NCBI GenBank assembly: GCA_963826945.1
Contig: CAWGYY010000004.1
Location: forward strand, 222,399 to 286,398
Source of the DNA: an uncultured Alphaproteobacteria bacterium
GTDB lineage: Bacteria; Pseudomonadota; Alphaproteobacteria; Rhizobiales; Xanthobacteraceae
Reading direction: 5' to 3'
Length of the DNA stretch: 64,000 nt
Shown in pieces: positions 1,627 through 34,713 of this stretch (the first letter of the stretch is position 1; every line of letters starts with the position of its first letter). The position numbers were made by a program, and so were the translations under genes. The notes beneath the pieces were generated by a model, which was not told the origin of the DNA, ran no database searches, and worked only from the letters and a program-made list of their open reading frames with translations.

Positions 1627-1644
1627 AGGTTCGGAATCTACCTA
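1627..1644 (-). promoter_or_regulatory. recurrent upstream motif, copy 1 (sense reads AGGTAGATTCCGAACCTC)
   Basis: Matches the TGAGTAG(A/T)TTCCGAGCCTACC family. Lies about 110 nt upstream of the 1514 start, in sense orientation. Confidence 0.4.
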
Positions 1645-2198
1645 TATCGTCGGCCAGTTCGGCGATCCCGCGGCCGACACGAGAGGTGGAACGCAGGCGC
1701 ATCAAGCTGCACCGAACCTGCCGCGACAATTGTCAGGCACCGGCGCCACTTGACCGACCGGCTGCGGGATATCGTGAATGTGCTTGAAGATTGGGAATGG
1801 CGGCTAACGACAGAGCGTAATCGATGGAACCCTATTCCTGCCGTTATGCACGGTGTCCTCTTTGGCGCTCTCGCCGGTGGCCTGATGGTTTCGGCAACCG
1901 ATGGAGGCGACCAGTGACAGCACCAAGCCGGTACTACTGTCATTGCAATTATGATGATGACTAGGCTGGCCTGTGTGATTGTATTTTATCTGCGACAAAT
2001 CTTCTCAAACTGAGGTACCACGGGACAATTCATCTGCGCGGCGCCACGCAGCGTAGTACCGAACAGATAAACGAAAATTTCCGAGCGAAATTTGCAGGGC
2101 TAAGCACCAGGGTCGCTGGGGAGACAATTCAGAGCACCTTCACATAGGGTGCCGTCCTAACGCTGATCCATCGACGGACCAGCTGAACATGTTGTGCG

Positions 2199-5030
2199 CT
2201 ACATTGCCGTATTCGCCAAAAGATGTTTGAGCGCCTCCATCGCTTTTCCAAATTTATCCCAATCCCCCTGCTGCATAGCCTTCTCGGCGTCCTCGAACTG
2301 CATCCTCGCCTGGCCAGCGTCCAACTGGCCGGTCGTCACCTTCGCGGCCGCGCCGGTTGCTTGCGCCACGGGCGCCGCTTGAGGCTGCTGCGTACCGAAA
2401 AGAGCGGTGAGCGCCTCGTCGAGGGTTGGCTCCATGACGACCTTGTCGCCCGCAACCGCGATGACGCGCTTTAGCTGCGGAAAGTTCGTGCCTTCAGCTC
2501 TCAGGTACAAGGGCACCACGTACAGGAACGAGTTCTCAATCGGAGTCACGATTTGCTTGCCGCGGATCACTCGCGACCCTTGTTGATTCCAGAGGGTCAG
2601 TTGCTGAGAAATCGTGGTGTTTTGGTCGATCATCGCCTCGACCTGGTTTGGTCCGTAGATGAGCTTCTCCTTCGGAAGCTCGTAAAAGAGCATTTTCCCG
2701 TACTCGGGAAAGTCGGACCTGGCGGCCATCCAGGAGATCATGTTGTCCCGGTTTTGTGGCGTGAAGGGAGTCATGAGCAAATACTCAAGCTGGTCGCTTC
2801 CGGGAAGCTTCGTCAGAATGTAGTAGGGCTGCATAGGCTGCGCTTGGCCTTCGTACTTTTCCATCGGGGCCGTCCAAAGGTCTTCCCGGTTGTAGAAAAC
2901 CTGAGGATCCGTCATGTGGAAGGTTCTGTATTGGTCGGCTTGGATGGTGAAGAGATTCTCTGGATAGCGCAGGTGCCTCTTTAGATCGGCGGACAGCTCG
3001 CTTAGTTCATTGAACACGCCGGGAAACGCCAGCCGATAGACGGCCAGGACTGGATCCTTCGGATCCATGACGTAGAAGCGGACGGTTCCGTCGTACATGT
3101 CCACGATCACCTTCACGGAGTTTCGGATGTAGTTGAGTCCGTCAAACCCAGCCGCGGAGCGAGCTTCGGTCCCGCCTGCGTCGGGTCCACCCAACCTTTG
3201 CCCCAGCGCGGTGTCATACTGAGTTGGCCACTCCGGATTTGCGTACGGAAAGTAATTCGAGACCGTATAGGCATCTTGAATCCAGTAAAGCTTACCCTCG
3301 CTCAATACAGCGTAGGGATCATTGTCGAGGCGCAAGAAGGGAGCGATTTGCGCCACGCGCTCGCGAACGTCTCGATGGATCTGAATGCGGCTCTCGGGCT
3401 TGAGATAGGACGTCAATAGAATGTTGACGTCAGCTTTGGTCCAGGCGAACAAAAGCTTCTTCCAATCACTGTCTAACGGGATTCCGCCTTTTCCGCCGTA
3501 GCTGGTGTAAACATTGTCATTGCCCTTGGGGTAGTCGAACTCTTTGATGCCGGTGGCGACGATTCGATATCCCGGCATCGCTTGTCCGTAGTAGATGGCG
3601 GGCTGGGTTATCGTCACGCCGAAGGCGGACTCGGCTGGGACGTTCTCAAGAACGTATTGCGGAAACCCTCCTCCGATAGTCTTCGAAACGAAGTTCATCA
3701 CCACGCCGTAGCCGTGTGTGAACTGCAGGTACTGGTTGACCCACGTCTGCGCTTTCGCGGGAAGTTCCGGCGAAAGCTCGCGGGTGGAGAGCATGACCTG
3801 GTGATAGCCGTCCGCCAGGTGATAACGGTCGGTATCGACGTTATAGAATTGGTAGTAGAGGCGTATCGCCTGGGTCTGTTGATAGGTCTGAAGCAGCGGC
3901 CGCGCGTCCCATAGCCTAATGTTCTGGATCGTCTCTTGGTTCCTCGCGATCACGGCGGGCGTCAGATCCGCCAGTGCCGGATAGGACGTTTCCTGGATTG
4001 AATCGAGTTGGTAAGCTTTCCGCGTGAACTCGATGTAATTTCTTAGGTAGGGCGTCTCCAACGCCAGCTCGCTCGGCTGCACAACATATTTCTGAAAGAC
4101 GAAGGGAGCCAACAACACCCCGATGGCCCACAGAGCCACGTACACCCCGGCTCCAACGGCCAACATCTTGAGGCGTGGGCGAAAGAAATTGAGCGCGAGC
4201 AGTGCACACGCAACGACCGAGACGCCAACCATGATCCACAGGGCGACCCGCGTTACATGATCCGCCGCATAGCCAGCCCCATAGACGACGCCCAGAGTGG
4301 AATAGACGAGCTCATAGTGATCGAGGTAGAAACCCCATCCAAAATTGGCCATCAGAATAAAAAGAAGCACAGAAAGATGCGACGTAGCGTTACCGCCGAC
4401 GGCGATCCTTCCGCTTTCGCCAGCCCGCTGCATCCCTAAGAATACGTAGGTCGCAAGGACGATCCCGAGCGTCAAGATCGTCAGCAACGTCAGGCTGCTT
4501 TGCAACAGAACATAGAAGGGCAGATGAAAGACATAAAACCCGACATCAACCCCGAAAAGCGGATCGGAAACTCCGAACGAGCCGCCGTAACGAAAGCGGA
4601 GGTAAGTATCCCATTCAGAATAGAAACCACCCGCAAGAAACAAGGCGATGCCGGCACTGATCAATACGATGGCCGCCTTCAATAGCCTGGGAGACAGCTC
4701 AATTTTGGTTTGCGTGGCCGCATCGGCCCTGGATAAAGAAGCAAAGCTCCATGGTTGCCCCAACCTGCGGAAAGCGCCGTTATTTTCGGCCGCGTGGCGG
4801 AGATTGATCCACAGGAACAGAAAAGCAACGACAAAAGCCAAGCAAAACATCACGCACTGAACTGACAGAAGCGTCCAGAAGATTCCGGTGTAGTCGAGCT
4901 GCTGCATCCAGAGCCATTGTTCCAGATAGCCGGCAATACTTACCAGAACAGCAATGAGTAAGACCGCGGCAACAATCATGAGCCGCAGCAGATGTCGGGA
5001 ATGGGGATGCACCGTCGGATTCTCGTTCAT
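2199..5030 (-). CDS. UPF0182 family membrane protein
   Basis: 967-aa ORF with an N-terminal multi-TM region and a large soluble domain typical of UPF0182 (COG1615). The likely start is the internal ATG at 5030 (MNENPTVHP), which has a GGAG upstream. Confidence 0.9.
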   Translation of the reverse strand: MNENPTVHPHSRHLLRLMIVAAVLLIAVLVSIAGYLEQWLWMQQLDYTGIFWTLLSVQCVMFCLAFVVAFLFLWINLRHAAENNGAFRRLGQPWSFASLSRADAATQTKIELSPRLLKAAIVLISAGIALFLAGGFYSEWDTYLRFRYGGSFGVSDPLFGVDVGFYVFHLPFYVLLQSSLTLLTILTLGIVLATYVFLGMQRAGESGRIAVGGNATSHLSVLLFILMANFGWGFYLDHYELVYSTLGVVYGAGYAADHVTRVALWIMVGVSVVACALLALNFFRPRLKMLAVGAGVYVALWAIGVLLAPFVFQKYVVQPSELALETPYLRNYIEFTRKAYQLDSIQETSYPALADLTPAVIARNQETIQNIRLWDARPLLQTYQQTQAIRLYYQFYNVDTDRYHLADGYHQVMLSTRELSPELPAKAQTWVNQYLQFTHGYGVVMNFVSKTIGGGFPQYVLENVPAESAFGVTITQPAIYYGQAMPGYRIVATGIKEFDYPKGNDNVYTSYGGKGGIPLDSDWKKLLFAWTKADVNILLTSYLKPESRIQIHRDVRERVAQIAPFLRLDNDPYAVLSEGKLYWIQDAYTVSNYFPYANPEWPTQYDTALGQRLGGPDAGGTEARSAAGFDGLNYIRNSVKVIVDMYDGTVRFYVMDPKDPVLAVYRLAFPGVFNELSELSADLKRHLRYPENLFTIQADQYRTFHMTDPQVFYNREDLWTAPMEKYEGQAQPMQPYYILTKLPGSDQLEYLLMTPFTPQNRDNMISWMAARSDFPEYGKMLFYELPKEKLIYGPNQVEAMIDQNTTISQQLTLWNQQGSRVIRGKQIVTPIENSFLYVVPLYLRAEGTNFPQLKRVIAVAGDKVVMEPTLDEALTALFGTQQPQAAPVAQATGAAAKVTTGQLDAGQARMQFEDAEKAMQQGDWDKFGKAMEALKHLLANTAM

Positions 5031-5158
5031 CGTTCCACTCCAAATCGGCCGCGATGTACCGTGTTCGGACCACCGATCCGGGACATCGCTGATTGCGGGC
5101 AACTTCGAAGCGCGCTAATCGGGCAAACTACTACCTTAGCGAGCGGGAAGTCGGGGGC

Positions 5159-5180
5159 GGTAGCCTCGGAATCTACTCAG
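5159..5180 (-). promoter_or_regulatory. recurrent upstream motif, copy 2
   Basis: Plus strand reads GGTAGCCTCGGAATCTACTCAG; the sense-strand motif lies upstream of the UPF0182 gene. Confidence 0.45.
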
Positions 5181-5497
5181 AGACCGCCGGTTCACGTCCT
5201 TGCCCAGCGATGGACGAGAGCTGCTATTGGAATCCATGAGCGTCTCGACCGGATCGCTGGCGTGCGCGAGATGCCGAGACGCGCACGCGGCACCGTTTCA
5301 GCCAGTGCCCGCATTCTTTTTGGAGACTGCGCGTCGCATCGAAGTTTAATCGAAGTCGTCGACAATGACGCCGTTTTGCGGATGAAGGCCTTGCGGCGGG
5401 CCTTGGTCTCTGCATGGCCACATTAAAATCATGTCGGTATGATCGGCGCCGATCACCTCGTGCAGGCGCTCAGACGCATGAATGTATAGGGACAGGG

Positions 5498-5519
5498 CTG
5501 AGTAGTTTCCGAGCCTACC
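5498..5519 (+). promoter_or_regulatory. recurrent upstream motif, copy 3
   Basis: CTGAGTAGTTTCCGAGCCTACC, upstream of the general-stress membrane protein gene. Confidence 0.45.
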
Positions 5520-5716
5520 TTTTGCTGTATCACTGCGGATATTGTGAGATCTGCTAACTTCGCGTCCAAAAAGTGCATGTCCACGGGTCTTCCTGGCCCC
5601 GTGGTTGACCCGAAGCGCGCTATGCATTGCCAGGCTCGTCTTAAAAAGAGGATCAAATCGACAAAGCTGACACCGTCATCGCAGTCTTCGCAGACCATAA
5701 TTCAGCAGAAGCGGCC

Positions 5717-6217
5717 GTGAAAAAACTAGCCGCCGCCGGCTTCGAAATGAAAAACCTCAGTGTTGTCGGCAAGGGATATCAAACCGACGAAAAGGTCGTC
5801 GGCTTCTACAACGAGGGTGACCGGATCAAGTTTTGGGGCAAGCGGGGTGCGTTCTGGGGCGGTCTCTGGGGCATGTTCTTTGGCGGGCTGTTCCTGACCA
5901 TTCCCGTTGTTGGGCATGTCATCGTGCTAGGATATCTGGCCTCCATGGCGATCTACGGCATCGGGAATGCTATCGTGGTTGGCGGGCTAAGCGCGCTCGG
6001 TGCAGCGCTCTATGGCATCGGCGTGCCGAAGGACAGTGTGATCCAATACGAAACCGCTGTGAAAGCCGATAGTTTTCTGGTGATGGCGCACGGCCCGGCT
6101 GAGGAAGTGGCTCGTGCCAAGGCGATCCTCGGTACGCTCAAGCCTTCACGCCTTGATGTGCATGCAGGCGTGAAAGCGGCGGAGCCGGCAGGTCATCTCG
6201 CCCATGCGGGTGGCTGA
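5717..6217 (+). CDS. general-stress-type membrane protein (YflT/DUF1269-like N-domain plus Gly-rich TM region)
   Basis: AAVKKLAAAGFEMKNLSVVGKGYQTDEKVVGFYNEGDRIKFWGKRGAFWGGLWGMFFGGLF. Homology appears to continue upstream to 5657, where no ATG/GTG/TTG exists (see findings). Confidence 0.75.
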   Translation: MKKLAAAGFEMKNLSVVGKGYQTDEKVVGFYNEGDRIKFWGKRGAFWGGLWGMFFGGLFLTIPVVGHVIVLGYLASMAIYGIGNAIVVGGLSALGAALYGIGVPKDSVIQYETAVKADSFLVMAHGPAEEVARAKAILGTLKPSRLDVHAGVKAAEPAGHLAHAGG

Positions 6218-6902: not shown

Positions 6903-6924
6903 CTGAGTAGATTCCGAGCCTATC
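6903..6924 (+). promoter_or_regulatory. recurrent upstream motif, copy 4
   Basis: CTGAGTAGATTCCGAGCCTATC, about 110 nt upstream of the PRC-barrel gene start at 7037. Confidence 0.45.
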
Positions 6925-7036
6925 GAAATTTTGCGACGACCCTTACTTCACACTCCCCAGGCCATGCAGCGGCAATCCGATGCGGCAACAATCCAGGTTG
7001 ACGCCGGCTCAAAAAGGTAACGAGGAGACACGTCAC

Positions 7037-7942
7037 ATGAAACGCTCGACATTAGTCGGCTCCGTGGCAGCATGCATTTGCCTTAGTCTTTCCATCCCGC
7101 TGCTCGCGGCTGAGCCTCCAGTAGCCGGCACCGCGACCCAACCGGCTTCCGGTGAGAAGTCTTCTCCGATTGAGAAGAAAGTCGTCGCCGTTGAGCCGGC
7201 CGAAAAGTGCCTTAAGGATCTGCGCACCTTCGACAATCAAATGGAAAAGGAGGGCTATTGGCTTGGCGGATCTGGCGATGGATACGGTTATCCGATGGAG
7301 GGATATGGCCTCTATGGCCCTCCGCTAATGGATCAGCGCGTAGAAGCGACCGGAATCGGTTATCGGAACGCGCGGCCCGGCTACGAGCTTCGGACCCTTA
7401 TAGCCTCCGCTAACATTCTCGCTCGGCAAGGCCAACAGCAGGCGTGTGAGGACGTGCTCGCCACGACCCGCGATATCTACAAAGTTTACGTGGCTGATAT
7501 GCACAGCGGCAAAATGCCGATGGCGGACGTGCAGGGCTGGCGGCAACTGCAGATAGCAGCCGCGCAGCCGATCACAAGCACAAATACCTCGTTCTTCCGG
7601 TCCGACGAATTGGTCGGCACCGAGGTGCGCAGCCCACAGAACGAAGCTCTCGGCAGCGTCGAAGACCTCGTGATGAATCCGCAGACAGGCAAAGTCGCCT
7701 ATCTGGTAATCGCCGAAGGTGGAATTTTCGGGATTGACGAAAAATACGTCCCAGTACCCTGGGAGGCCTTCAAGATATCCCCGAACGTGAAGCTGCTCGT
7801 GCTAGGCACTACCAAGAGCGTCTTGGGCGCAGCTCCACGAGTAAGCAAAGACCAATTCACGACTCCCAGCCACTTCGAGCAGCAGAGTCAGAAAGTGGAT
7901 GCCTACTGGAAGACGCACCTCTCTGACAAAGGCAAAGACTGA
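7037..7942 (+). CDS. secreted PRC-barrel domain protein
   Basis: Signal peptide MKRSTLVGSVAACICLSLSIPLLAA. C-terminal PRC-barrel: ELVGTEVRSPQNEALGSVEDLVMNPQTGKVAYLVIAEGGIFGIDEKYVPVPW. AGGAG lies 10 nt before ATG 7037. Confidence 0.8.
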   Translation: MKRSTLVGSVAACICLSLSIPLLAAEPPVAGTATQPASGEKSSPIEKKVVAVEPAEKCLKDLRTFDNQMEKEGYWLGGSGDGYGYPMEGYGLYGPPLMDQRVEATGIGYRNARPGYELRTLIASANILARQGQQQACEDVLATTRDIYKVYVADMHSGKMPMADVQGWRQLQIAAAQPITSTNTSFFRSDELVGTEVRSPQNEALGSVEDLVMNPQTGKVAYLVIAEGGIFGIDEKYVPVPWEAFKISPNVKLLVLGTTKSVLGAAPRVSKDQFTTPSHFEQQSQKVDAYWKTHLSDKGKD

Positions 7943-8002: not shown

Positions 8003-8779
8003 ATGTTGCGAAATGCGTCAGCGATCAAGGGCTACGCTATTGCGGCAAATAATGGTCGGCTTGGCACTGTGAGCGACTTTCTATTTGACGACGCCAGCTG
8101 GTTGGTTCGTTGGTTGGTCGTCGATACCGGCAATTGGCTCTCCGGTCGCAAAGTCCTTCTGCCGCCCTCCGTCTTGGGGCAGCTCGATCCAAACGGACGC
8201 GAGTTCGCGGTTGGATTGACCATGCAGCAGGTCAAGGACAGCCCGGATATCGACACCGAGCGACCAGTGTCGCGGCAGATAGAGACCAACATTTGCGATT
8301 ACTACGGGTGGCACCCGTATTGGGGCGCCGGCCGTTTTATGGGCGGCTACGGCTATGGGGGTGGTGCCATGCCAGTGTCGCCTGTCCCGGATCCAAGACT
8401 GCTTGAGGAGGATATTGCCGCCGCTCAGCTCAGCAACGACGATCCGCATCTGCGCAGCATTGAAGCGGTCACCCGATACCATGTCCACGCCAGCGATGGC
8501 GAGATCGGTCACGTCGCGGACTTCCTCGTCGAGGATGCCGATTGGAGCATCCAATATCTCGTCGTCGATACGCAGAACTGGTGGCCCGGGAAGACGGTCC
8601 TGATCCCGCCACGGTCGGTACGAGAGATCGATTGGACGGATAACCTGGTCAACCTCAATGTCGATCGTCAGGGGGTCAAGGACAGCCCCGCATACGACGC
8701 ATCCACAACCGTCGATCAGGCCTATGAGAAAAATTTTCGCAGCTATTACGGCGACGCCCGATCGAGCGATCAGCCGTAA
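8003..8779 (+). CDS. PRC-barrel domain protein (two PRC barrels)
   Basis: IKGYAIAANNGRLGTVSDFLFDDASWLVRWLVVDTGNW, and a second copy RYHVHASDGEIGHVADFLVEDADWSIQYLVVDTQNWW. Confidence 0.85.
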   Translation: MLRNASAIKGYAIAANNGRLGTVSDFLFDDASWLVRWLVVDTGNWLSGRKVLLPPSVLGQLDPNGREFAVGLTMQQVKDSPDIDTERPVSRQIETNICDYYGWHPYWGAGRFMGGYGYGGGAMPVSPVPDPRLLEEDIAAAQLSNDDPHLRSIEAVTRYHVHASDGEIGHVADFLVEDADWSIQYLVVDTQNWWPGKTVLIPPRSVREIDWTDNLVNLNVDRQGVKDSPAYDASTTVDQAYEKNFRSYYGDARSSDQP

Positions 8780-9318: not shown

Positions 9319-9332
9319 TTGATCTATATCAA
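9319..9332. promoter_or_regulatory. FixK/FNR-type box TTGAT-CTAT-ATCAA
   Basis: Perfect palindrome directly upstream of the phasin gene. Confidence 0.6.
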
Positions 9333-9799: not shown

Positions 9800-11627
9800 G
9801 TGGAGGTGATCATGCCGCCTGTCGCCCTCGTCCACGCGCGTGACACTGTAGTGCCGCGAGCGAGCAAAACCGCAGCCGAAGGGACTGCGGTTCGGGAATC
9901 GCCTCCCGACACCGCATTCCAGGTTCTCGACCGTGCGGCGCATGCGGCCATTTCCCAGGCCACGCTGGGCGTATCGCCGGCCGCGCTGGGAGGAGCTTTT
10001 TTCGACTGGTGGGTGCATCTTGCGTTCTCGCCCGGCAAGCAGGCTGAACTGGCACAGCAAGCGATCGCCGGAGCGGCGGACAATTTCGCCTTCGCCGCGC
10101 AATCCGCGTTCGGCTCGCCGGGCGACCCATCCGAGCGCGCATTGCCGCACGATGATCGCTTTCGCGCGCCGGACTGGCGGACTTTTCCGTTCAACGTCTA
10201 CGCTCACAACTTTTTGTCGATCGAACGCTGGTGGGAAGCGGCGACGACGCATGTGCGCGGCGTGAGCCAGCGCCACGACGACATGGCAAATTTCACGGCG
10301 CGGCAGCTCCTCGATACCGTCGCTCCCTCGAATTTCATCGTGACCAACCCGGAGGTCCTGGCGCGCACGCGCGCCGAGTCGGGCGCCAATCTGGTGCGCG
10401 GTTACGCGAACTTGATTGCGGACTTGACGCGAGCGCGAAGCGGCGCGCCGCCGCGCGGCACGGAGGCATTCAAGGTCGGCGAAACAGTGGCGGTGACGCC
10501 GGGCAAGGTCGTCCTGCGCACGCGTCTTGCGGAAATCATCCAATACGCGCCTGCAACCGACCGCGTCCGCCCGGAGCCGATCGTGATCGTGCCGGCCTGG
10601 ATCATGAAATACTACATCCTCGACCTGTCGCCGGCGAATTCCCTGGTCAAGTTCCTCACCCAGCAGGGCTTCACCGTATTCATGGTTTCCTGGAAGAATC
10701 CGGGCGCTGAGGACCGCGACGTCGGTTTCGACGATTATCGCACCGAAGGCGTGCTCCCGGCGATCAAGGCGGCGACCGCCATCACCGGCGCCCGCAAGGT
10801 GCATGCGGTCGGCTATTGCCTCGGTGGAACGCTGCTCGCGATCACTGCCGCGGCCATGGCGCGCGACGGCGACGAGCGGCTGGCGAGCCTGAGCCTGTTC
10901 GCCGCCCAGGTCGACTTCACCGAGGCCGGCGAGCTGATGCTTTTCATCGACGAGAGCCAGGTCACGTTCCTCGAAGACATGATGTGGGAGCGCGGCTACC
11001 TCGACTCCAGGCAGATGGCCGGGGCGTTCCAGATAGCGCGATCGAACGATCTGATCTGGTCGCGCAGCATCCACGACTACCTGATGGGCGAGCAGTCGTT
11101 TCCAATCGACATCATGGCCTGGAATGCCGATGCGACACGCATGCCCTTCCGCATGCATTCGCAATATCTGCGGTCGCTTTTTCTCAACAACGATCTCGCC
11201 GAGGGCCGGTTCGAAGTGGCCGGCCGCCCGGTGGCGCTGCCCGACATCCGCCTGCCCCTCTTCGCCGTCTCCACCGAGCGCGACCACGTCGCGCCTTGGC
11301 ACTCGGTCTTCAAGCTCCATCTTTTGACCGACGCCGAGATCACTTTCGTCCTGACGAACGGCGGGCACAACGCGGGCATATCTGTCCGAGCCGGGACATC
11401 CGCATCGCCATTTCCGCATGGCTGTGCGCGAGCACGGTGAAACTTATATCGATCCCGAAAAATGGCGTGCCGAACATGTGCCGCACGAGGGTTCATGGTG
11501 GCCGGCATGGAGCGCATGGCTTGCTGCGCGATCCGGCGAGCCGGTTCCACCGCCGCCGCTCGGCGACGCGGCAGCCGGCTTTGCGGCGATCGAGGATGCG
11601 CCGGGACGCTACGTCTTCATGAAGTAA
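9800..11627 (+). pseudogene. phaC: class I poly(3-hydroxyalkanoate) synthase, interrupted by a 1-nt frameshift near 11381-11385
   Basis: ORFs 9800..11440 and 11418..11627 join as ...VLTNGGHNAGI/(V)SEPGHPHRHFRMAVREHGETYIDPEKW.... The lipase-box region is VHAVGYCLGG. The expected IVSEPG is read in two frames. Confidence 0.85.
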
Positions 11628-11695
11628 GCAAAAGGAGATGCTCGGATACGCGGGCGGTCGTAACCGCGAGAATTGAAACAGTCTCGGAGCGTCAA

Positions 11696-23959: not shown

Positions 23960-26038
23960 ATGACCGGAGCCAAGGAGTTGAGAGACACAGCCGATCGTGG
24001 CGACGGCTCGGTGTCGCCGCTGGGGGTCCTAGCTCGCTTCCTGAGGGGGCGGCCGCTCGCCAATCGGGAAGGCCGCTCGCGCGAGATAGGCGTTGCCGAA
24101 GGGGTGCCGGCGCTCGGGCTCGATGGCCTGAGCTCTTCGGCATATGGACCGGAAGCGGCACTCAGCATCCTGGTAGCCGCGGGCGCAGCCGGGCTCGCCG
24201 ACCTCGGCCCGATCATGCTGATCATCCTCGCATTGCTGGCAATCCTATTCGTCTCATACTGGCAGACCATCAAAGCCTATCCGATAAGCGGCGGCGCCTA
24301 TACGGTCGCCAAGGAAAACCTTGGCGTGAACGCGAGCCTCTTGGCATCCGCGGGCATCATGGTGGACTACGTCCTGAATGTCGCCGTCGGCGTTTCCGCA
24401 GGCGTGGCGGCACTGGTTTCGGCCGTGCCAACACTACACCCGTATACGCTGCCGCTTTGCCTTGGCATCCTGGCCCTGCTGACGTTCGTCAACCTGCGAG
24501 GGACGATGGATGCCGGGCGGCTGTTCGCACTACCCACTTATCTATTCATCGCATGCTTCATGATTGTTCTCGCCCTCGGCGCTTATGCCGCTATGACGAG
24601 CGGCGGGCATCCGCAACCGGTCATGCCTCCGCCCGCACCGCCCAAAGCCGTCGAGGCGGTTGGCCTATGGCTATTGCTGCGGGCGTTCGCCAGCGGCTGC
24701 ACGGCGATGACCGGCGTCGAGGCGATTAGCAACGGTGTCGACGCATTTCGCGAGCCGTGCGTGGCCAATGCTCGCCGGACACTCGCCGCAATTGTCGTAA
24801 CTTTGGGCATCCTTCTCGCCGGCATCGCCTACCTCGCGATGTCTTATGGCATCATGGCGATTGACCAGACGCAGCCCGATTACCAAAGCGTGCTTTCACA
24901 GCTCGTCGGCGCGGTGGCGGGACGCGGCATCTTCTATTACGTGGCGATTGCCAGCGCGCTTTGCGTTCTTTGCCTGTCCGCGAGCACGAGCTTCGTCGGT
25001 TTGCCGCGTCTGTACCATGTCGTGGCGCAGGATGCGTTCTTGCCGCGGCCGTTTGCGACCTTCGGACGACGGCTGGTGTCTTCGGTCGGGATCATCTTTC
25101 TCGCGCTTACCGCCGGACTGCTGCTGACCGTATTTGACGGCATCACCGACCGCTTGATTCCGCTGTTTGCCATCGGCGCGTTCTTGACATTCACCATGTC
25201 GCAAACGGGCATGGTGGTGCATTGGCGGCGCGAGCTGCGCGATAAGCGCCACGCGACGGAACGCCGACGGGTCTGGATCAATCTCGTCATCAATGCCGTC
25301 GGCGCCTCGACAACGGCGACGGCGCTCGTGGTGATCGTAGTGGCCAAGTTCGCGCAGGGCGGCTGGATCACGATCGTCGCCATTCCTTGCGTGATCCTGC
25401 TGCACAAGGCGATTAAGCGGTATTACGACGACATCAACGATCAACTGCGGGATGAGGAGCCGCTCAAATTTCATCAGAGCAAGCCGCCGATTGTCCTGGT
25501 CACAGTACGAGAATGGAATCGAGTGACCCACAAGGTGCTCGGCCTCGCCATGGAGCTATCACCGGATGTGACGGCGGTTCGCCTGGCGGCGCTCGAAGGG
25601 CCGGACGTCAAAGGGGAAGAGCAAAAGCTTCGCGAGCAATGGGCCAAGGACGTCGAAGAGCCTGCGCGCGCGGCGCACTATCCGAACCCGCCGCAGTTGG
25701 CTTTCCTGAGCGCTCCCTACCGGCGCATTCACGCGCCGTTCTTGAAACTGATCAAAGAGATTGAGGATAAGAATCCCGATCGGACCATTGCGGTGCTGAT
25801 CCCGGAGCTCGTCAAGCAACACTGGTGGGACTACCTCCTGAGCGCCCAGCATGCCCGGCGGCTTCGCTCGGCGGTGCTCGCCTATGGCGGCCCGCGCGTC
25901 GTGGTCATCGCCGTGCCCTGGTATTTGACGCCGCCAAAGATCGAAGAGGCGATGAGCGAGGAAGAGGCCGCAGTACCCTTCAGAGTGCGAAATGTGCTCG
26001 GCTTCAGCCGGCGGCGCTCGAGTCGCAAGCCAGCGTAG
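23960..26038 (+). CDS. APC family permease with C-terminal cytoplasmic extension
   Basis: 692-aa ORF: GLDGLSSSAYGPEAAL...YPISGGAYTVAKENLG, about 12 TM helices, then a soluble tail. Confidence 0.85.
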   Translation: MTGAKELRDTADRGDGSVSPLGVLARFLRGRPLANREGRSREIGVAEGVPALGLDGLSSSAYGPEAALSILVAAGAAGLADLGPIMLIILALLAILFVSYWQTIKAYPISGGAYTVAKENLGVNASLLASAGIMVDYVLNVAVGVSAGVAALVSAVPTLHPYTLPLCLGILALLTFVNLRGTMDAGRLFALPTYLFIACFMIVLALGAYAAMTSGGHPQPVMPPPAPPKAVEAVGLWLLLRAFASGCTAMTGVEAISNGVDAFREPCVANARRTLAAIVVTLGILLAGIAYLAMSYGIMAIDQTQPDYQSVLSQLVGAVAGRGIFYYVAIASALCVLCLSASTSFVGLPRLYHVVAQDAFLPRPFATFGRRLVSSVGIIFLALTAGLLLTVFDGITDRLIPLFAIGAFLTFTMSQTGMVVHWRRELRDKRHATERRRVWINLVINAVGASTTATALVVIVVAKFAQGGWITIVAIPCVILLHKAIKRYYDDINDQLRDEEPLKFHQSKPPIVLVTVREWNRVTHKVLGLAMELSPDVTAVRLAALEGPDVKGEEQKLREQWAKDVEEPARAAHYPNPPQLAFLSAPYRRIHAPFLKLIKEIEDKNPDRTIAVLIPELVKQHWWDYLLSAQHARRLRSAVLAYGGPRVVVIAVPWYLTPPKIEEAMSEEEAAVPFRVRNVLGFSRRRSSRKPA

Positions 26039-26131: not shown

Positions 26132-26863
26132 TCAATCGAGGTCGATGAACGTCTTCAATTGGTCGAGCTTGAGTTTGAGGTTTCGCGGCGCAACCCGGTG
26201 AAGCATGCCCTCGCCTTCAAGACCGGCCAGCGCGCGGGTCACCGTTTCCGCCGATGTGCCGAGATAGTCCGCGATATCGTACCGGCTCATCGGAAGGGTC
26301 ATAATTTGTTTGCTCTGATCGAAGTAATGTTCATGGGCAGAACAATCGACCAGGAAGACGGCAAGGCGTCGCTGAATGTTAAACCGACCCATCACAATGA
26401 GTTGGCGTTGCGTGTGGCGCAGGTCGTATACCGCCTTGATGAGGAATGCATCCTGAATTTTCGGATTCTTCAGAAGGAAGCGCTCAAGCTTTCTAACTGG
26501 GAACCGATAGACCCTGGACGAGGCGATGGTCTCCGCTGAATTGACGTATTTTCCATGATCCGCGAGCCCGAACAGGTCGCCGGGCCAATGAAATGCCAGG
26601 ATCTGACGTTCACCATTGCGCAGCGTGTGATAGATCCGAACCACTCCGTCGGTTAGGAGATAGGTGAAAGCAGCGTCATCGCCTTGTGAAAATATTTCCG
26701 AACCGACGGTCCGGAAGTCAATAATCTGCGCCACCCGCCGGAGCTCGGCCTTGTCGGAGGCGGTAAGTGCAAGATACGGCGCTTCCTCGCCGTGTTCGCG
26801 TGGCCGGCTGCGGGTCGCGCGTATGCGGATGTCGGCATGGCTTGGGTTGCTGGAGTTGCGCAT
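26132..26863 (-). CDS. Crp/Fnr family transcriptional regulator (FixK-like, no N-terminal Cys cluster)
   Basis: cNMP-binding fold plus HTH SRYDIADYLGTSAETVTRAL (an E--(S/T)R recognition helix that reads TTGAT boxes). Confidence 0.9.
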   Translation of the reverse strand: MRNSSNPSHADIRIRATRSRPREHGEEAPYLALTASDKAELRRVAQIIDFRTVGSEIFSQGDDAAFTYLLTDGVVRIYHTLRNGERQILAFHWPGDLFGLADHGKYVNSAETIASSRVYRFPVRKLERFLLKNPKIQDAFLIKAVYDLRHTQRQLIVMGRFNIQRRLAVFLVDCSAHEHYFDQSKQIMTLPMSRYDIADYLGTSAETVTRALAGLEGEGMLHRVAPRNLKLKLDQLKTFIDLD

Positions 26864-27094: not shown

Positions 27095-27109
27095 CCCGAG
27101 AGCCTATCC
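27095..27109 (+). promoter_or_regulatory. recurrent upstream motif, weak copy 6
   Basis: CCCGAGAGCCTATCC, about 30 nt before ATG 27139; matches only the 3' half of the motif. Confidence 0.25.
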
Positions 27110-27138: not shown

Positions 27139-30100
27139 ATGTCCAAAAATCCAGTAGGGGCAAGATTCAACCTCGCCCCACCGTCGCGTGCTCGTGAACA
27201 CCTCATGCCTAAGCGTCTAATCAAGAGACAAGCGACCCATTCGCGTAAGGCCAAAACGGTGCGGCCGCGATCGAGCCGGCGCTCGCTTGCGGCGCGTAGC
27301 CCTCGTCGCGGCAGTGGGGAATTCCCGGTTGTCGGAATAGGCGCTTCGGCGGGTGGCCTTGATGCTTGCCGGAAGCTCATGGACGCGCTGCCCGCGGGCA
27401 GCGGCATGGCCTTCATCCTCGTCCAGCATCTCGATCCGACCCACGAAAGCATGATGGTGGAGCTACTGGCCGGCCACACGTCGATGAATGTGCGGCAGGC
27501 AACGGATGGAATGCCGATCGAGCGCGACCACCTCTACGTCATTCCGCCCGGAACCTATCTGTCTGTCGGCGACGGCGCCCTGCATCTTTCCCAGCCCCAG
27601 GCGCGTCATGGTTCGCGACTGCCTTTCGATTTTTTACTCCATTCATTGGCGGAAGACTACGGCAAGCGCGCCATTTGCGTGGTTCTCTCAGGAACAGGGG
27701 CCGACGGCAGCCTTGGTCTGAAGGTCGTGAAGGAAAAAAACGGGCTCGTCATCGCGCAGGACCCTGACGAGGCCAGCTATGATGGCATGCCGCGGAACGC
27801 GATCATGACGGGCGCCGTGGACCTTGTGCTTCCGGTGGCCAAGCTTCCTGAAGCGCTCGTCAAATACGGTCGGCGAATGGCGCTTTCTCGCAAGCAGAAC
27901 AATTTGCGCCCGCAGGATGTGCCGGAGGACCGCTTGGCCCAGATCGTCGATCTCCTGCGCACGAAAACCGGCCATGATTTCAGGCTTTACAAGCCAGGCA
28001 CGTTGCGGCGCCGGATCGAGCGGCGCATGGCGATGGCGGAGATCAAGACCGATGATATGGATCGGTATCTCGAACTGCTGCGCAACGATACAAGCGAGCT
28101 CGGTCTTCTTGCCAAGGACTTGCTCATCAATGTCACCAGCTTCTTCCGCAATCCGAAGGTTTTCGATTTTTTGGCGGAGAAGATCGTTCCCGAGCTGGTC
28201 CGCCACCACACGTCCAATGACCCGCTACGCATCTGGATTGCCGGGTGCAGCACAGGCGAGGAGGCTTATTCCCTTGCCATGCTCTTCCATGAACAGAGCA
28301 CTGCGGCCAAGCGCAACGTCAAACTGCAGGTCTTTGCCTCCGACGTCGATCCGGATGCTGTAGCGCACGCCCGCGAAGGTCTCTACCCGGAAATGATCGA
28401 GGCAGACGTGTCGGCGGCTCGACTAGCCCGCTTCTTTTCGAAGGACGGTCACAATTACAGAGTAACGCCCGAACTGCGTGCGGCGGTGGTCTTCACGGTA
28501 CAGGATGTGCTGACCGATCCGCCCTTCTCACGTCTCGACTTTGTTTCGTGCCGCAATCTTCTGATCTATTTGCGCCCCGAGGCACAGGCAAAAGTCATCT
28601 CGCTTTTCCATTTTGCGCTGCGCGAAGGCGGCCTTCTCCTTCTTGGCACCGCGGAGACAGTGGGCAACGCCACCGATCGCTTCGAGGCGATCGCCAAGCA
28701 GGAGCGGCTCTATCGGCACATCGGTCGCAGCCGGCCGGGAGAGCTTGGCTTTTCGCTGAGCGGCGGTGACGGCGTGCGAGTTCCCGCGCGCCCGGCACAA
28801 GGCCAATTGCCCTCGCACCAAGCCGCTCTCGCCGATCTTTGCCGACGGCTGCTACTGGAGACCTACGCGCCGGCGGCGGTCCTGATCAACCGCAAGCACG
28901 AGTGCCTCTATTCCTTGGGACCGACAGACCGTTACCTGCGCGTGGCGCCGGGACACCCTACTCAGGATTTGCTCGCCATGGTGCATCAGGGGATGCGTAC
29001 CAAGCTCAGGTCAGCAATCCAGTTGGCGAGCCAAGAGTACGCACGAATAGTCGTCCCCGGCGGGCGGACGAGCCACGGCCGCAATCCAGGCTCGTTCAGC
29101 ATGGCCGTACAGTCGGTTCTGAGCGAAGGCGAGGAGCTTCTGTTGATTTGCTTCATCGACGAGCCGATGCAGGAGCGGAGACAAGGTCGCCCGACCGCTC
29201 CGGGAGACGTTCCGCGGGTTGCCGAGCTCGAGCGGGAACTCGAAGCCACCAGAACCGAGCTCGAAGGTGCCATCCGGAACCTTGAGATTTCGAACGAAGA
29301 GCAGAAGGCGGCCAACGAAGAAGCATTGTCCAACAACGAGGAATACCAAACGACGAACGAGGAGCTACTGACGTCGAAGGAGGAATTGCAGTCGCTCAAC
29401 GAGGAACTTACCGCCCTCAATAGCCAGCTCCAGGAAACCCTGGAGCGGCAGCGTACGACCTCCAATGATCTGCAAAATATCCTGTACAGCACCGATGTTG
29501 CGACGATCTTCCTCGACACCAACCTGAATATCCGCTTCTTCACGCCTGCAACTAAAGCGCTCTTCCATGTCATTCCCAGCGACGTCGGGCGGCCGCTCGC
29601 AGACCTTAGCTCGCTAGCAGCCGATAACGCCCTTCTGGCGGATGCCCGAACGGTGCTGCAAACCCTCGCGCCGATCGAGCGAGAAATCAAAGCTCAGAGT
29701 GGCGCCTGGTACATCCGTCGCGTGTTGCCGTACCGCACCCAAGAGAAGGGTGTGGACGGCGTAGTCATCACCTTTGTCGAAATCACCGAGCGCAAGCACA
29801 TAGCGGAGGCACTGGAGACGGCAGAGCGGCAAGCTGAGCTGGCCAATGCCGCTAAATCACGGTTTCTCGCTGCCGCGAGCCATGACCTGCGGCAGCCGCT
29901 GCAAACGCTCAAGCTAGTGCAAGGCATCTTGGCCAAGAAGATCAAGGAGAACAAGAACGACGAAGCCTTGCAGCTGGTCACACGGCTCGACGAGGCGGCG
30001 GCCGCTATGGCGGGCATGCTGAACGGGCTGCTTGACATAAACCAGATCGAGGCTGGCATTGTCCACGCCGAAATGGTCAGTTTCCCAATCAAGGGTTTGC

Positions 30101-31623
30101 TTGACCGATTGAGAGATGAGTTCGCCTATCACGCGCAAGCAAAGCGGCTTGCCTTGCACGTGGTCTCGTGCGGCCTTTCGATACATAGCGACCCGCGTCT
30201 GCTCGAGCAGATGATCCGCAACCTGCTTGCCAACGCCGTGAAATACACCAAGCGCGGCAAGGTGCTGCTCGGTTGCCGTCGCCGCAAAGGCGTGTTGAGC
30301 ATCGAAATCTGGGACACCGGAATTGGCATCCCCGACAATGAACTGCAAACGATCTTCGAGGAATACCATCAGCTCGACAATGCCGCGCGTGAACGCAGCC
30401 GTGGGCTCGGCCTTGGTCTCTCCATCGTGCAACGCCTGGGGAATTTGCTGGGTCATCGGGTAAGCGTCCGCTCACATCCGGGCAAGGGCTCAGTCTTCGC
30501 CATCGAGGTCATGCTCGCACCGAGCGGAACGGCACCGCAACTTGCGCACTATCGGCGGGGCAAAGATGACGAGGTAGTTGAAGGCGTTCGCCGCACTGGC
30601 GCGATCCTGGTCGTCGAGGACGATCCCGACGTGCGCGAATTCCTCACGTTCGCCCTCAAGGACGAGGGCCATCGTGCGATAGCGGCGCCTAACGGTATCG
30701 CAGCGCTGAAACTGGTCGCGCGCGGGACGGTCCGACCTGACCTTATCCTCGCAGACTACAATCTGCCAAATGGTATGGACGGGCTCCAGGTCATCGCGAA
30801 GCTGCGGGAAAAACTTCATCGCCAAATCCCGGTCATCATTCTGACCGGTGATATCTCAACCGACACCCTGCGCGATATCGCTCGCCATGACTGTGTGCAG
30901 CTCAACAAGCCAGTGAAGTTGAAGAATCTGGCACAAGTCGTCCAACGCCTCCTCCCAGTAGCGCAATCCGCAGCGCATCCTCACGCTCAGTACCCCGCGG
31001 AAGCAGCCAGCACTCCGGAACCGCGGCTCATTTTCGTCATCGACGATGACAACCATGTACGCGATGCGATACGCGCGGTGCTCGAAGAAAATGGCCAGAG
31101 CGTCGAAGATTATCCGACGTGCGAGGCATTCCTCGAAGCCTACCGTCCGGGCCGCGGAGCATGCCTCTTGATCGATGCCTACTTACCCGGAATGACCGGC
31201 CTCCAATTGCTGCAGCGGTTCCATGATGCGGGCCATCGGCTGCCGGCGATCATGATCACTGGCAATGCCGACGTGTCGATGGCGGTTCAAGCCATGAAGG
31301 CCGGCGCTTCGGACTTCATCGAGAAGCCAATCGGCCGCACCGAACTGGTCGCCAGCGTCGAGCGAGCTCTCGAACAGGCGCGGGATTCGAGCAAGCTATC
31401 CGCCTGGCGGGAGGCTGCGGCGAACCGCATCGCGGGCCTAACTCACCGAGAGCGCCAGATCATGGAATTGGTCCTCGCCGGCCATCCCAATAAGAACATC
31501 GCCGCGGAACTAGGCATCAGCCAACGCACTGTCGAGAACCATCGCGCTGCAATCATGAAGAAAACCGGCTCGAAGTCTCTTCCGGCGTTGGCCCGCTTGG
31601 CCCTTGCCGCCGGCGTGGGATAG
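27139..31623 (+). CDS. CheB methylesterase - CheR methyltransferase - coiled coil/PAS - HisKA/HATPase - REC - REC - LuxR HTH fusion protein
   Basis: 1494-aa intact ORF. CheB: VVGIGASAGGLDA...SGTGADGS. CheR: RIWIAGCSTGEEAYSLAM. Heptad region: EEYQTTNEELLTSKEELQSLNEEL. HK: AAASHDLRQPL and DTGIGIP...GLGLGLSIV. Two receivers: VVEDDPD...ILADYNLP and FVIDDDNH...LLIDAYLPG. HTH: LTHRERQIMELVLAGHPNKNIAAELGISQRTVENHR. Confidence 0.85.
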   Translation: MSKNPVGARFNLAPPSRAREHLMPKRLIKRQATHSRKAKTVRPRSSRRSLAARSPRRGSGEFPVVGIGASAGGLDACRKLMDALPAGSGMAFILVQHLDPTHESMMVELLAGHTSMNVRQATDGMPIERDHLYVIPPGTYLSVGDGALHLSQPQARHGSRLPFDFLLHSLAEDYGKRAICVVLSGTGADGSLGLKVVKEKNGLVIAQDPDEASYDGMPRNAIMTGAVDLVLPVAKLPEALVKYGRRMALSRKQNNLRPQDVPEDRLAQIVDLLRTKTGHDFRLYKPGTLRRRIERRMAMAEIKTDDMDRYLELLRNDTSELGLLAKDLLINVTSFFRNPKVFDFLAEKIVPELVRHHTSNDPLRIWIAGCSTGEEAYSLAMLFHEQSTAAKRNVKLQVFASDVDPDAVAHAREGLYPEMIEADVSAARLARFFSKDGHNYRVTPELRAAVVFTVQDVLTDPPFSRLDFVSCRNLLIYLRPEAQAKVISLFHFALREGGLLLLGTAETVGNATDRFEAIAKQERLYRHIGRSRPGELGFSLSGGDGVRVPARPAQGQLPSHQAALADLCRRLLLETYAPAAVLINRKHECLYSLGPTDRYLRVAPGHPTQDLLAMVHQGMRTKLRSAIQLASQEYARIVVPGGRTSHGRNPGSFSMAVQSVLSEGEELLLICFIDEPMQERRQGRPTAPGDVPRVAELERELEATRTELEGAIRNLEISNEEQKAANEEALSNNEEYQTTNEELLTSKEELQSLNEELTALNSQLQETLERQRTTSNDLQNILYSTDVATIFLDTNLNIRFFTPATKALFHVIPSDVGRPLADLSSLAADNALLADARTVLQTLAPIEREIKAQSGAWYIRRVLPYRTQEKGVDGVVITFVEITERKHIAEALETAERQAELANAAKSRFLAAASHDLRQPLQTLKLVQGILAKKIKENKNDEALQLVTRLDEAAAAMAGMLNGLLDINQIEAGIVHAEMVSFPIKGLLDRLRDEFAYHAQAKRLALHVVSCGLSIHSDPRLLEQMIRNLLANAVKYTKRGKVLLGCRRRKGVLSIEIWDTGIGIPDNELQTIFEEYHQLDNAARERSRGLGLGLSIVQRLGNLLGHRVSVRSHPGKGSVFAIEVMLAPSGTAPQLAHYRRGKDDEVVEGVRRTGAILVVEDDPDVREFLTFALKDEGHRAIAAPNGIAALKLVARGTVRPDLILADYNLPNGMDGLQVIAKLREKLHRQIPVIILTGDISTDTLRDIARHDCVQLNKPVKLKNLAQVVQRLLPVAQSAAHPHAQYPAEAASTPEPRLIFVIDDDNHVRDAIRAVLEENGQSVEDYPTCEAFLEAYRPGRGACLLIDAYLPGMTGLQLLQRFHDAGHRLPAIMITGNADVSMAVQAMKAGASDFIEKPIGRTELVASVERALEQARDSSKLSAWREAAANRIAGLTHRERQIMELVLAGHPNKNIAAELGISQRTVENHRAAIMKKTGSKSLPALARLALAAGVG

Positions 31624-31681: not shown

Positions 31682-31703
31682 TTAGTTAGTTTCCGAACCT
31701 ACC
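31682..31703 (+). promoter_or_regulatory. recurrent upstream motif, copy 7
   Basis: TTAGTTAGTTTCCGAACCTACC; the flanks (TAGCCA-TAG...CCTACCGT-GGC-CAT) closely match copy 5. Confidence 0.4.
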
Positions 31704-32046
31704 GTAGGCGCATTCGGGGGCGTAAATTAGTCGGGCTAGTCGTTGGCGCACGCGGCCGGATGGCCTCAAGCCGTGAGGGTATCTTGCATTGCTCATCCTT
31801 TAGAAAACGACCGAATAATCCTCATTTCCAGTCCTTGGCCGCCAGCAGGATCAGATCTTTCCAGCAAACCTAGCCATCGTTGGAGACCGGCAAGACCTAA
31901 CGTGACCTGCGCGCAGCTGGCAGATGCCCCGTTCGCGCATCCACGGCGCTACCTTGCCTTCCTGGACGGATTTCGTCGAAAAAGCGCCCGGATCGCACGA
32001 TCTGAATAGTGCCCCGCTAGAGCTGAACATTAAGGAGAAGAACAAA

Positions 32047-32241
32047 GTGGCAAAAATCGAGGAAAAGGAATTGGAGGGGCATCGTGGTGATATTATCGCT
32101 GACGTGAAAAAATTGGTCGAAAAATATCGCGCAATATTCGATTGGGATGTGCCGGATATCGATCAAACTGCTGCGGATAAGCTCATCTTGAGCGAGGTGC
32201 GTAAGGCCTTAAATAAGTTAGAGCATAAATTGTTGGGCTAA
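32047..32241 (+). CDS. small acidic hypothetical protein (64 aa)
   Basis: AAGGAG lies 9 nt upstream of GTG 32047: VAKIEEKELEGHRGDIIADVKKLVEKYRAIFDWDVPDIDQTAADKLILSEVRKALNKLEHKLLG. Confidence 0.45.
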   Translation: MAKIEEKELEGHRGDIIADVKKLVEKYRAIFDWDVPDIDQTAADKLILSEVRKALNKLEHKLLG

Positions 32242-33879: not shown

Positions 33880-34131
33880 TTACGTGTTGCCCCTGTCGTG
33901 GCCATTGGACCGCCAACCGTTGGACAACAAACGGCCGCCCGTCTCCGCTAATTTCTGACCGTCAGCGAATATGCGTTTCGCGTCCTCGGTTGCCATCTCC
34001 ATCTGCCGGCTGGCCGATTCCTGATAGGCCGTCGCGACCTCAGGGATCGAGCGGGCCGCTGTAAGCTTCGCGACAAATTCGGACCAAGCGCGCGGTGCTT
34101 TAAATATGCTTCTCCGAACCTCAGCGTGCGT
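33880..34131 (-). pseudogene. phasin-like C-terminal remnant without a start codon
   Basis: Own translation: ...APRAWSEFVAKLTAARSIPEVATAYQESASRQMEMATEDAKRIFADGQKLAETGGRLLSNG...*. It parallels ASKLTAARSIPDAMATYQEWASRRFEMMAEDGKHLLADTQKFMEAATHLLPNG of the phasin at 9443..9781. The frame is bounded by a TAA upstream, with no ATG/GTG/TTG before the homology. Confidence 0.4.
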
Positions 34132-34552
34132 TTAGTTGGGGCAATCGCGCGTGCGAGCATGCATGTTCCTTCACCCGCTCCTTATTCTGCGCGGATGCCG
34201 GCAATTGCAGCACGGCGGCGGTCTGACCGGCGACAAGCCGCGTGACCAACACCACCTGGCCACCCGGAAATTCGAGCGCGTCATGATGGACGTGCGGATT
34301 GTCCATATTGAGTTGCCGGAACCGGGCAACCTGGTGCTCCACGCGCGCCTTCCCGAACAAACTGAAAGCGCGGTGATATTTGACCTCCTTCTCGAAGGCG
34401 AGTTCGGTGCCGGGAAGCAGACAGACGACGACGTCGGGTTCCCCGACGGCGGCGAAGCCGCGGGTGATCGATTTCGAGAATTCCGTCACCACCAGCTTGT
34501 CACCAACCTTGGCCGGCCGCGAAGCGACGAGATGAAGACTGTAATCGCACAT
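34121..34552 (-). CDS. conserved hypothetical protein (MCDYSLH... N-terminus)
   Basis: GAGGAG lies 7 nt before ATG 34552; 143-aa globular-looking product. Confidence 0.65.
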   Translation of the reverse strand: MCDYSLHLVASRPAKVGDKLVVTEFSKSITRGFAAVGEPDVVVCLLPGTELAFEKEVKYHRAFSLFGKARVEHQVARFRQLNMDNPHVHHDALEFPGGQVVLVTRLVAGQTAAVLQLPASAQNKERVKEHACSHARLPQLNAR

Positions 34553-34691
34553 GGCGCACTCCTCTGCGGGAACAGCCGATACGGCTCTTTGTCGATTTGA
34601 AGGCTCACCGACCCGCGACATCGCTGATTCCGGCAACTCCGAAGCGCTGATCGGCGCAACCTGCAATTCTAGTGAGCGGGAAGTCGAGAGA

Positions 34692-34713
34692 GGTAGACTC
34701 GGAATCTACTCAG
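34692..34713 (-). promoter_or_regulatory. recurrent upstream motif, copy 8
   Basis: Plus strand reads GGTAGACTCGGAATCTACTCAG; the sense-strand motif lies about 140 nt upstream of ATG 34552. Confidence 0.45.

Follow-up and report, generated by a model that had tools for sequence, protein, structure and literature searches.

The lux and tra boxes bound by LuxR and TraR are dyads of about 20 bp that lie near -42, take the place of the -35 hexamer and are bound by a dimer of GerE-type helix-turn-helix (HTH) domains; a position near -42 is the classical one for a class II activator. In the hybrid two-component systems of Bacteroides, sensor, kinase, receiver and DNA-binding domain are part of one polypeptide, and these proteins are membrane-bound, sense glycans in the periplasm and carry AraC-type outputs. 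For FixJ, the binding classes GTAGTTTCCC and GTAMGTAG were obtained by systematic evolution of ligands by exponential enrichment (SELEX), and the fixK site of Sinorhizobium meliloti is TAAGTAATTTCCCTTA (Tsoy et al. 2016, PMC4999443). Here we analyzed a 21-bp element that recurs upstream of genes in a stretch of 64,000 nucleotides from an uncultured Alphaproteobacteria bacterium of the Xanthobacteraceae (contig CAWGYY010000004.1, positions 222,399 to 286,398; this whole stretch is called the window below). Comparison of sequences from many genomes suggests that the element is probably the activator-dependent promoter box of the FixJ-like module of a hybrid protein, 1494 amino acids long and encoded in the same window, and that it serves a regulon of stress and dormancy genes.

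The left half of the element, GAGTAGTTTCC, matches GTAGTTTCCC, GTAMGTAG and TAAGTAATTTCCCTTA; the latter sequence was located on pSymA, where it closely follows fixT and fixJ and precedes fixK by 70 nt. The FixJ sites of the fixK and nifA promoters are also alike in their core GTAG/GTAA-TTTCC, in being imperfect palindromes and in overlapping or abutting the -35 region of a sigma-70 promoter. They differ in the right half, which is CTTA in FixJ sites but GA(G/A)nCTAC here, and the fixK promoter of S. meliloti has two protected regions (-69/-44 and -57/-31), whereas a single 21-bp block centred near -42 is present here. The lux and tra boxes share the size of the dyad, its centre at about -42 and the replaced -35 hexamer; however, their sequences are unrelated, and they are under the control of acyl-homoserine lactones, whereas control by phosphorylation is predicted here.

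The 21-bp element and its promoter context

The consensus of the element, read in the direction of the downstream gene, is T(G/A)(A/G)GTAG(T/A)TTCCGA(G/A)nCT(A/G)(C/T)C, and positions 3-19 form the imperfect palindrome GTAGnTTC-C-GAnnCTAC. The short GTAG-N-CTAC dyad noticed in a sequence-only reading of this DNA is thus real and forms part of a longer palindrome. In the common site variant TAGGTAGTTTCCGAACCTACC, 16 of 19 positions are self-complementary, which fits binding by a dimeric HTH. Comparison of 119 degenerate sites from other genomes revealed an invariant core, T..GTA..TTCCGA..CT, and freer positions at 1-2, 6-7, 14-15 and 18-20.

These 119 degenerate sites were used to build a weight matrix, from which the window and the exact seed matches were left out. 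The matrix detected seven sites in the window, each with a score of 25-35 bits, and nothing else of at least 10 bits in the 64 kb; ten Markov-shuffled windows scanned with the same matrix gave 0 or 1 match. A search with the consensus TGAGTAGWTTCCGAGCCTACC, allowing up to three mismatches, yielded five matches in the window against 0.00 expected (100 shuffles), and a shorter motif core adds the match at 31691. The part of the window from 36 to 64 kb, taken as a control, contained no sites. The sequence-only reading had counted eight copies, all pointing at a gene. Seven of these are real and all seven are oriented towards an open reading frame (ORF) that starts about 35-220 nt downstream, but the eighth, a half-match at 27095-27109, reaches less than 10 bits and has no -10 hexamer at the right spacing. 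Since the CheB catalytic-serine region is part of the hybrid ORF from about residue 60, this rejected candidate would be no more than about 30-100 nt away from the start codon.

Alignment of 118 non-redundant instances showed that the flanks of the element are unconserved apart from T-A-t-n-n-T at +41 to +46 from the motif start, that is, 20 nt past the motif end. This sequence is, by its pattern, a -10 hexamer of the housekeeping (sigma-70) type, and a TAnnnT/C hexamer is found 19-20 nt 3' of the motif at all seven window sites. A -35 hexamer was found neither in the 118 aligned instances nor at the window sites; the sequence at this place is TA(C/T)CGn. Since the motif precedes the -10 by 19-20 nt, the palindrome is centred at about -42: with transcription starts taken as 7 nt past the -10, the motif would span approximately -53 to -33, and the dyad centre would be located at -41/-42 in 7/7 window copies. 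The fixed distance to the -10 in 118 instances and the likeness to FixJ sites strengthen the earlier suggestion that the element is an operator or promoter element of a stress regulon.

Other known boxes were considered as the identity of the motif. The EcfG consensus GGAAC-N16/17-CGTT is absent from motif and spacer, and the downstream element is TAnnnT; sigma-54 and CtrA-type consensus sequences do not fit either, the conserved downstream element being a -10 of the housekeeping type. FixK/FNR boxes do occur in the window, as separate elements. The sequence-only reading, too, had failed to fit the motif to EcfG, sigma-54, FixK or CtrA sites; the FixK/FNR-type boxes are a second element beside it.

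The hybrid protein as candidate regulator

A scan for the exact 21-mer with one genome per species gave matches in more than 119 stretches, and 119 loci of 8 kb each were analyzed. Among the matches listed, the loci belong mostly to Alphaproteobacteria and some to Caballeronia and Paraburkholderia; cultured carriers of the motif include Caballeronia, Paraburkholderia, Bradyrhizobium, Methyloferula and Rhodopila. From these sequences the motif regulon is dispersed and widely conserved beyond this cluster and this genome, so that the idea of a regulon confined to the local stress cluster had to be given up.

By far the largest ORF cluster in the 119 motif loci (35 loci) is that of the hybrid protein, which is encoded at 27139-31623 (+) in the window, and tblastn detected an ortholog of it in 33 of the 119 loci, with 45-84% identity per segment. 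Full-length orthologs comprise about 1466-1654 amino acids; three shorter ones are without CheB and CheR and one is without CheR. No sigma factor or other regulator family is comparably frequent in these loci, except for a Crp-family group. In 9 loci the motif is followed on the same strand by a small gene, often of the Crp family, and then by the hybrid gene; in 10 loci the motif-driven gene is divergent from the hybrid gene; and in locus L085 the motif is located just past the hybrid stop codon, as it is at position 31683 of the window. These layouts are typical of a regulator and its target. Isolates in which motif and hybrid are linked belong to more than one order and class (Marivita lacus, Rhizobium sp. 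BK251, Caballeronia udeis, Caballeronia sordidicola and Paraburkholderia polaris), and this linkage favours the LuxR/FixJ-type output domain of the 1494-aa kinase, one of the regulators proposed in the sequence-only reading. The two others, ActR and a single REC protein, found no support; in other genomes, single REC proteins are among the targets.

The linkage was also analyzed in the reverse direction, using five loci (L121-L125) picked solely because they encode a homolog of the hybrid. Sites were present within 10 kb in 5/5 loci (1, 3, 9, 1 and 1 sites), altogether 15 sites in 114 kb compared to about 0.2 expected. All of them are intergenic and face an independently called gene 89-556 nt downstream. 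Together with the seven sites of the window, 22 of 22 sites are intergenic and directed towards a gene, showing that their placement is not random. No sites were detected in the control region, 45 kb around fixLJK of S. meliloti.

Some of the motif loci (L019, L022, L031, L034, L053 and L068) carry record titles of Acidobacteria, Planctomycetes or Candidatus Peribacteria. The motif flanks of L019, L034 and L053, and more loosely those of L022, are near-identical to alphaproteobacterial loci, and the non-proteobacterial titles probably reflect mis-binned contigs of metagenome-assembled genomes, which would not be evidence for a distribution across phyla.

A domain search in the hybrid identified CheB_methylest, CheR_N/CheR, PAS_10, HisKA, HATPase_c, two Response_reg domains and GerE, a LuxR-type HTH that is the only one in the window and forms the C-terminus. 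The last approximately 200 amino acids represent a FixJ-type REC+HTH module with 42% identity to FixJ of S. meliloti, in which the conserved receiver aspartates, threonine and lysine are intact; among solved structures, full-length FixJ (5xso, E 3e-41) matches best, better than StyR, NarL and DesR. The HTH is nearly invariant in orthologs from Alpha- to Betaproteobacteria (the equivalent in S. meliloti FixJ is PNKSIAYDLDISPRTVEVHRANVMAKM), which matches the near-invariance of the DNA site. Orthologs bear generic database names such as 'CheB/CheR fusion protein' or 'chemotaxis protein CheB', and for the ortholog of Methyloferula stellata (P0099) no database record was found. Between CheR and PAS (residues ~640-700), the hybrid contains a glutamate/glutamine-rich heptad segment (in orthologs, for example, NEEALSVNEEYQSTNEELLTSKEELQSLNEELTALNSQLQE). 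This segment recalls the methylation helices of chemoreceptors and could, by analogy, be a substrate of the hybrid's own CheR/CheB.

The hybrid resembles the Bacteroides proteins in having kinase, receiver and DNA-binding output in a single chain, but differs from them since it starts with CheB/CheR and PAS, contains two receivers and ends with a FixJ-type LuxR HTH. The likeness to FixLJ-FixK consists of a REC+LuxR-type activator that is, as predicted here, phosphorylated, a target that is often a Crp/Fnr regulator, and TTGA-N6-TCAA boxes in the cluster. The regulator here is, in contrast, fused to a kinase and CheB/CheR, and its targets are genes for stress and dormancy in place of nif or fix genes. 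A Crp-family gene is located directly behind the motif in 5 loci, a trait of the FixK cascade, whereas the FixJ-like matches in the motif loci are, without exception, C-termini of hybrids that contain a kinase and, where the ORF is complete, comprise 656 to about 1650 amino acids. With its Crp-family targets and FixK boxes the system thus seems to work like FixLJ-FixK rather than to belong to it. Four traits expected of a class II operator of the FixJ/NarL family were observed: a dyad, a fixed position overlapping -35, likeness to FixJ sites and a co-encoded regulator of the subfamily.

Several points weigh against the hybrid as the regulator of the motif. Linkage was measured at the level of loci, in 8-kb pieces; no site is located upstream of the window's own hybrid gene, where the candidate at 27095 fails; a stand-alone REC-GerE regulator adjoins sites in one locus, L123; and the record titles may overstate the taxonomic range. 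The hybrid could also be a conserved target and not the regulator. A related explanation is that a different regulator of the FixJ/NarL family binds the motif, either canonical FixJ, which responds to oxygen, or a stand-alone paralog of the REC-GerE type like the one encoded behind a site in L123, and that the hybrid is merely a frequent member of the regulon. The left half of the motif equals published FixJ sites, the motif is often found before a Crp/Fnr gene just as FixJ precedes fixK, and FixK boxes are enriched in the window, all of which would agree with such a regulator. However, the motif loci yielded no stand-alone FixJ ortholog, and the FixJ-like matches there are all hybrids and closer to the window's hybrid than to FixJ of S. 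meliloti. The fixLJK region of S. meliloti is without a site and its fixK site is without the right half, and linkage of hybrid and motif extends to distant taxa. We regard binding by another FixJ-family protein as unlikely.

It appears highly improbable that the motif, instead of being an activator site, forms the upstream part of promoters recognized by an alternative sigma factor of the extracytoplasmic function (ECF) type: the downstream hexamer is the housekeeping TAnnnT instead of CGTT or CGTC; the motif, 21 bp in length, is partly palindromic and has neither GGAAC nor AAC at -35; and none of the sigma-factor families shows enrichment among the 119 loci. These observations outweigh the fixed orientation and the fixed spacing to the downstream hexamer, the resemblance of the targets to general-stress genes and the EcfG-like sigma gene behind one site in L122, which would suit an ECF-type promoter. 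The many copies per genome, the short dyad and the occurrence of two window copies within a longer paralogous block of 97 nt could also be expected of a dispersed repeat, such as the end of a repetitive extragenic palindrome (REP) or of a miniature inverted-repeat transposable element (MITE), or of an RNA element transcribed in 5' leaders. All copies are, however, single, intergenic and directed towards genes, their flanks are unconserved apart from the -10, and a partner terminal repeat is missing. An RNA element is also difficult to reconcile with bases that are invariant rather than covarying, with a central loop of the dyad that would be 1 nt and with a position upstream of the inferred start, where the motif would not be transcribed. 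A scan of the whole window with Rfam yielded no family at gathering score, and the window has no tRNAs. A repeat or RNA element is accordingly the explanation to which we give hardly any credence. Taken together, the evidence argues for a box used by the FixJ-like module of the hybrid as the probable explanation.

Sites, target genes and neighbouring features of the window

The perfect consensus site, TGAGTAGTTTCCGAGCCTACC, is located at 5499-5519 (+) with the -10 TATTGT at 5540-5545 and a predicted start at about 5552; its predicted target is a YflT-domain stress membrane protein, the ORF of which extends to 6217. Upstream and on the opposite strand, the site TGAGTAGATTCCGAGGCTACC at 5159-5179 (-), with the -10 TAAGGT at 5133-5138 and a predicted start at about 5126, is predicted to drive the UPF0182 gene (2199-5102, -). 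The site TGAGTAGATTCCGAGCCTATC at 6904-6924 (+; -10 TACTTC, 6944-6949) has a PRC-barrel gene at 6980-7942 as its predicted target, and a second PRC-barrel gene is encoded at 8003-8779. The weakest of the seven sites (25.1 bits), TAGGTAGATTCCGAACCTCAC at 1624-1644 (-), has the -10 TATGAT at 1599-1604 and a predicted start at about 1592; it is located upstream of a hypothetical ORF (1008-1514, -) that matched no Pfam family.

The remaining three sites are spread over the following part of the window. The site TAGGTACTTTCCGAGCCTACC at 15387-15407 (+; -10 TACTCT, 15428-15433) lies upstream of a 5' fragment of a DUF3141 gene (15442-15786), the full-length DUF3141 gene being encoded at 16574-18862; in locus L015 the full-length gene is found directly behind the motif. 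The window contains two copies of the first 256 nt of the DUF3141 gene (15448-15703 and 16571-16826, 89% identity), and the motif promoter now fronts only a 114-aa fragment, the full-length gene following 1.1 kb on without a site of its own. The site TAGTTAGTTTCCGAACCTACC at 31683-31703 (+; -10 TAAATT, 31723-31728), 60 nt past the stop codon of the hybrid gene, precedes a small ORF (31924-32241) and is kept in the 99%-identical relative L125. For the site TGAGTAGATTCCGAGTCTACC at 34692-34712 (-; -10 TAGAAT, 34666-34671) the predicted target is the 'MCDYSLH' hypothetical protein (ORF 34121-34666, -).

Two of the window copies sit in a paralogous block of 97 nt (5123-5219 and 34656-34752), and eight promoters, namely these two and those of L001, L028, L034, L053, L063 and L097, have further sequence in common besides the motif. 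Their predicted targets are UPF0182, the 'MCDYSLH' protein and a phasin-like gene. All eight have the conserved spacer GACTTCCCGCTCGCTAAG, which may hold a second half-site of the TTCC type; most contain a conserved upstream block, TCGTCCATCGCTGAGCAAGG, and five a conserved leader, GCGCCGATCAGCGCTTCGGAGTTGCCGCAATCAGC.

The genes located directly behind the motif across genomes encode a YflT-domain membrane protein (10), P-type ATPases (6), PRC-barrel proteins (5+4), aldehyde dehydrogenase (5), a Crp/Fnr regulator (5), UPF0182 (4), a BON-domain protein (4), Band-7/SPFH proteins (3) and a ClpB-like ATPase (3). DUF3141, phasin-like and CsbD/DUF883-like proteins, single REC proteins, GroES-GroEL and an EcfG-like sigma factor are further motif-linked products. 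Judged by these families, the predicted regulon is one of stress and dormancy functions. It shares kinds of targets (PRC-barrel, BON, CsbD-like and YflT-type) with the PhyR-NepR-EcfG general stress response, the promoter of which, GGAAC-N16/17-CGTT, differs and was not found in the 21-bp motif or its spacer. One site in L122 (3412-3432, -) precedes a sigma-factor gene of the EcfG/PhyR type and one in L123 (15360-15380, +) precedes groES-groEL, which is a hint of cross-talk both to the general stress response and to the expression of chaperones.

Between 7 and 26 kb, the window encodes a phasin, PhaC, a reductase, a thiolase, an alcohol dehydrogenase, Pta and AckA as well as a universal stress protein (USP), a 2-hydroxyacid dehydrogenase and a permease. 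This part resembles the low-oxygen-activated (lxa) locus of Burkholderia cenocepacia, with which it has polyhydroxybutyrate (PHB) synthesis, phasin, alcohol dehydrogenase, Pta-AckA, USP, 2-hydroxyacid dehydrogenase and Crp/Fnr regulators in common. For lxa, an Anr/Fnr-like motif, TGA-N6-TCA, has been published (PMC3721108). Despite the similar gene content its sequence differs from that of the 21-mer, and such boxes are separate in the window.

These FixK/FNR-type boxes (TTGA-N6-TCAA) occur five times in the window compared to 0.9 expected, at 978-991, 9319-9332, 15323-15336, 25742-25755 and 34982-34995. One is located at the start of the phasin gene, one 50 nt upstream of the site at 15387 and one at the start of ORF 34995. 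They probably constitute a second layer of the regulon, putatively served by the Crp/Fnr-family regulator encoded at 26132-26863 (-), divergent from the hybrid gene; a Crp-family gene related to it is found in other genomes, where it separates the motif from the hybrid gene. Since both 21-bp sites and FixK/FNR boxes are present, two cis-elements coexist here, as in the FixJ-to-FixK cascade. The other regulator encoded in the window is an ActR-like REC protein (36423-37004).

Some genes of the window are interrupted. The YflT-family gene (5540-6217) has no ATG, GTG or TTG start where its orthologs start, and two overlapping ORFs take the place of a single one both for acetoacetyl-CoA reductase (11462-12458) and for thiolase (12942-14146). 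Either these genes are pseudogenes, or a long-read assembly has introduced indel errors. In the close relative L125 the permease gene is split as well. A tandem array at 38694-43036 consists of 19.6 copies of a 221-nt unit with 99-100% identity and a strong T-over-A skew on the + strand. The flanking ORF (43118-43666, -) has a weak match, below the Pfam cut-off, to the replication-associated domain REP_ORF2-G2P, and the array may represent iterons or a satellite belonging to an integrated element, or else an artefact of the assembly. Beside it, in a stretch of lower GC content, a 1200-aa ORF (46529-50131, -) contains N6-adenine methylase, Eco57I and MmeI-type domains, which point to a type IIG/IIL restriction-modification enzyme.

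A putative circuit for stress and dormancy

In the mechanism that we propose, phosphorylation of the receiver would allow a dimer of the FixJ-subfamily LuxR-type HTH to bind the palindrome at about -42. The palindrome would take the place of the missing -35 hexamer, and the bound dimer would recruit sigma-70 RNA polymerase as a class II activator, like LuxR and TraR at their boxes, resulting in activation rather than repression. The likeliest candidate for this role is the FixJ-like module at the C-terminus of the hybrid encoded at 27139-31623, and with the hybrid as regulator, sensor, kinase and transcription factor would reside in a single polypeptide. Positive autoregulation would be expected in the many genomes in which the motif precedes the hybrid operon. 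A Crp/Fnr regulator among the targets would give a cascade similar to that from FixJ to FixK, and single REC targets may provide feedback, by analogy with FixT.

Extended to the whole family, this leads to a broader proposal, which we advance tentatively and rate at somewhat less than an even chance: a widespread and so far unstudied device of soil Alpha- and Betaproteobacteria, in which CheB/CheR, PAS, kinase, two receivers and a FixJ-type domain are united in one cytoplasmic polypeptide, would directly activate a dispersed stress and dormancy regulon, often including itself and a Crp/Fnr regulator, via an almost invariant 21-bp class II box and in parallel to the EcfG response. In the literature that was searched we found no paper with the motif or on the function of CheB/CheR-kinase-LuxR proteins. 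The kind of element, a class II operator of the FixJ/LuxR type, is known, and the specific box, the regulon and the fused regulator appear to be undescribed. The glutamate-rich coiled-coil between CheR and PAS hints that the hybrid may methylate itself; if so, methylation-based adaptation would be applied to transcription and not to motility.

If the proposal is true, the 21-mer would be a handle on a regulon and on a regulator family that are hidden by current annotation, because the regulator is labelled as a chemotaxis or fusion protein and many of the targets are hypothetical. Given the conservation of the sites, the regulon could be read straight from the sequence in hundreds of soil and peat bacteria. 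Alphaproteobacteria would then possess a second circuit for stress and dormancy, independent of EcfG, and the large unexplained family of CheB-CheR-kinase fusions would gain a testable output.

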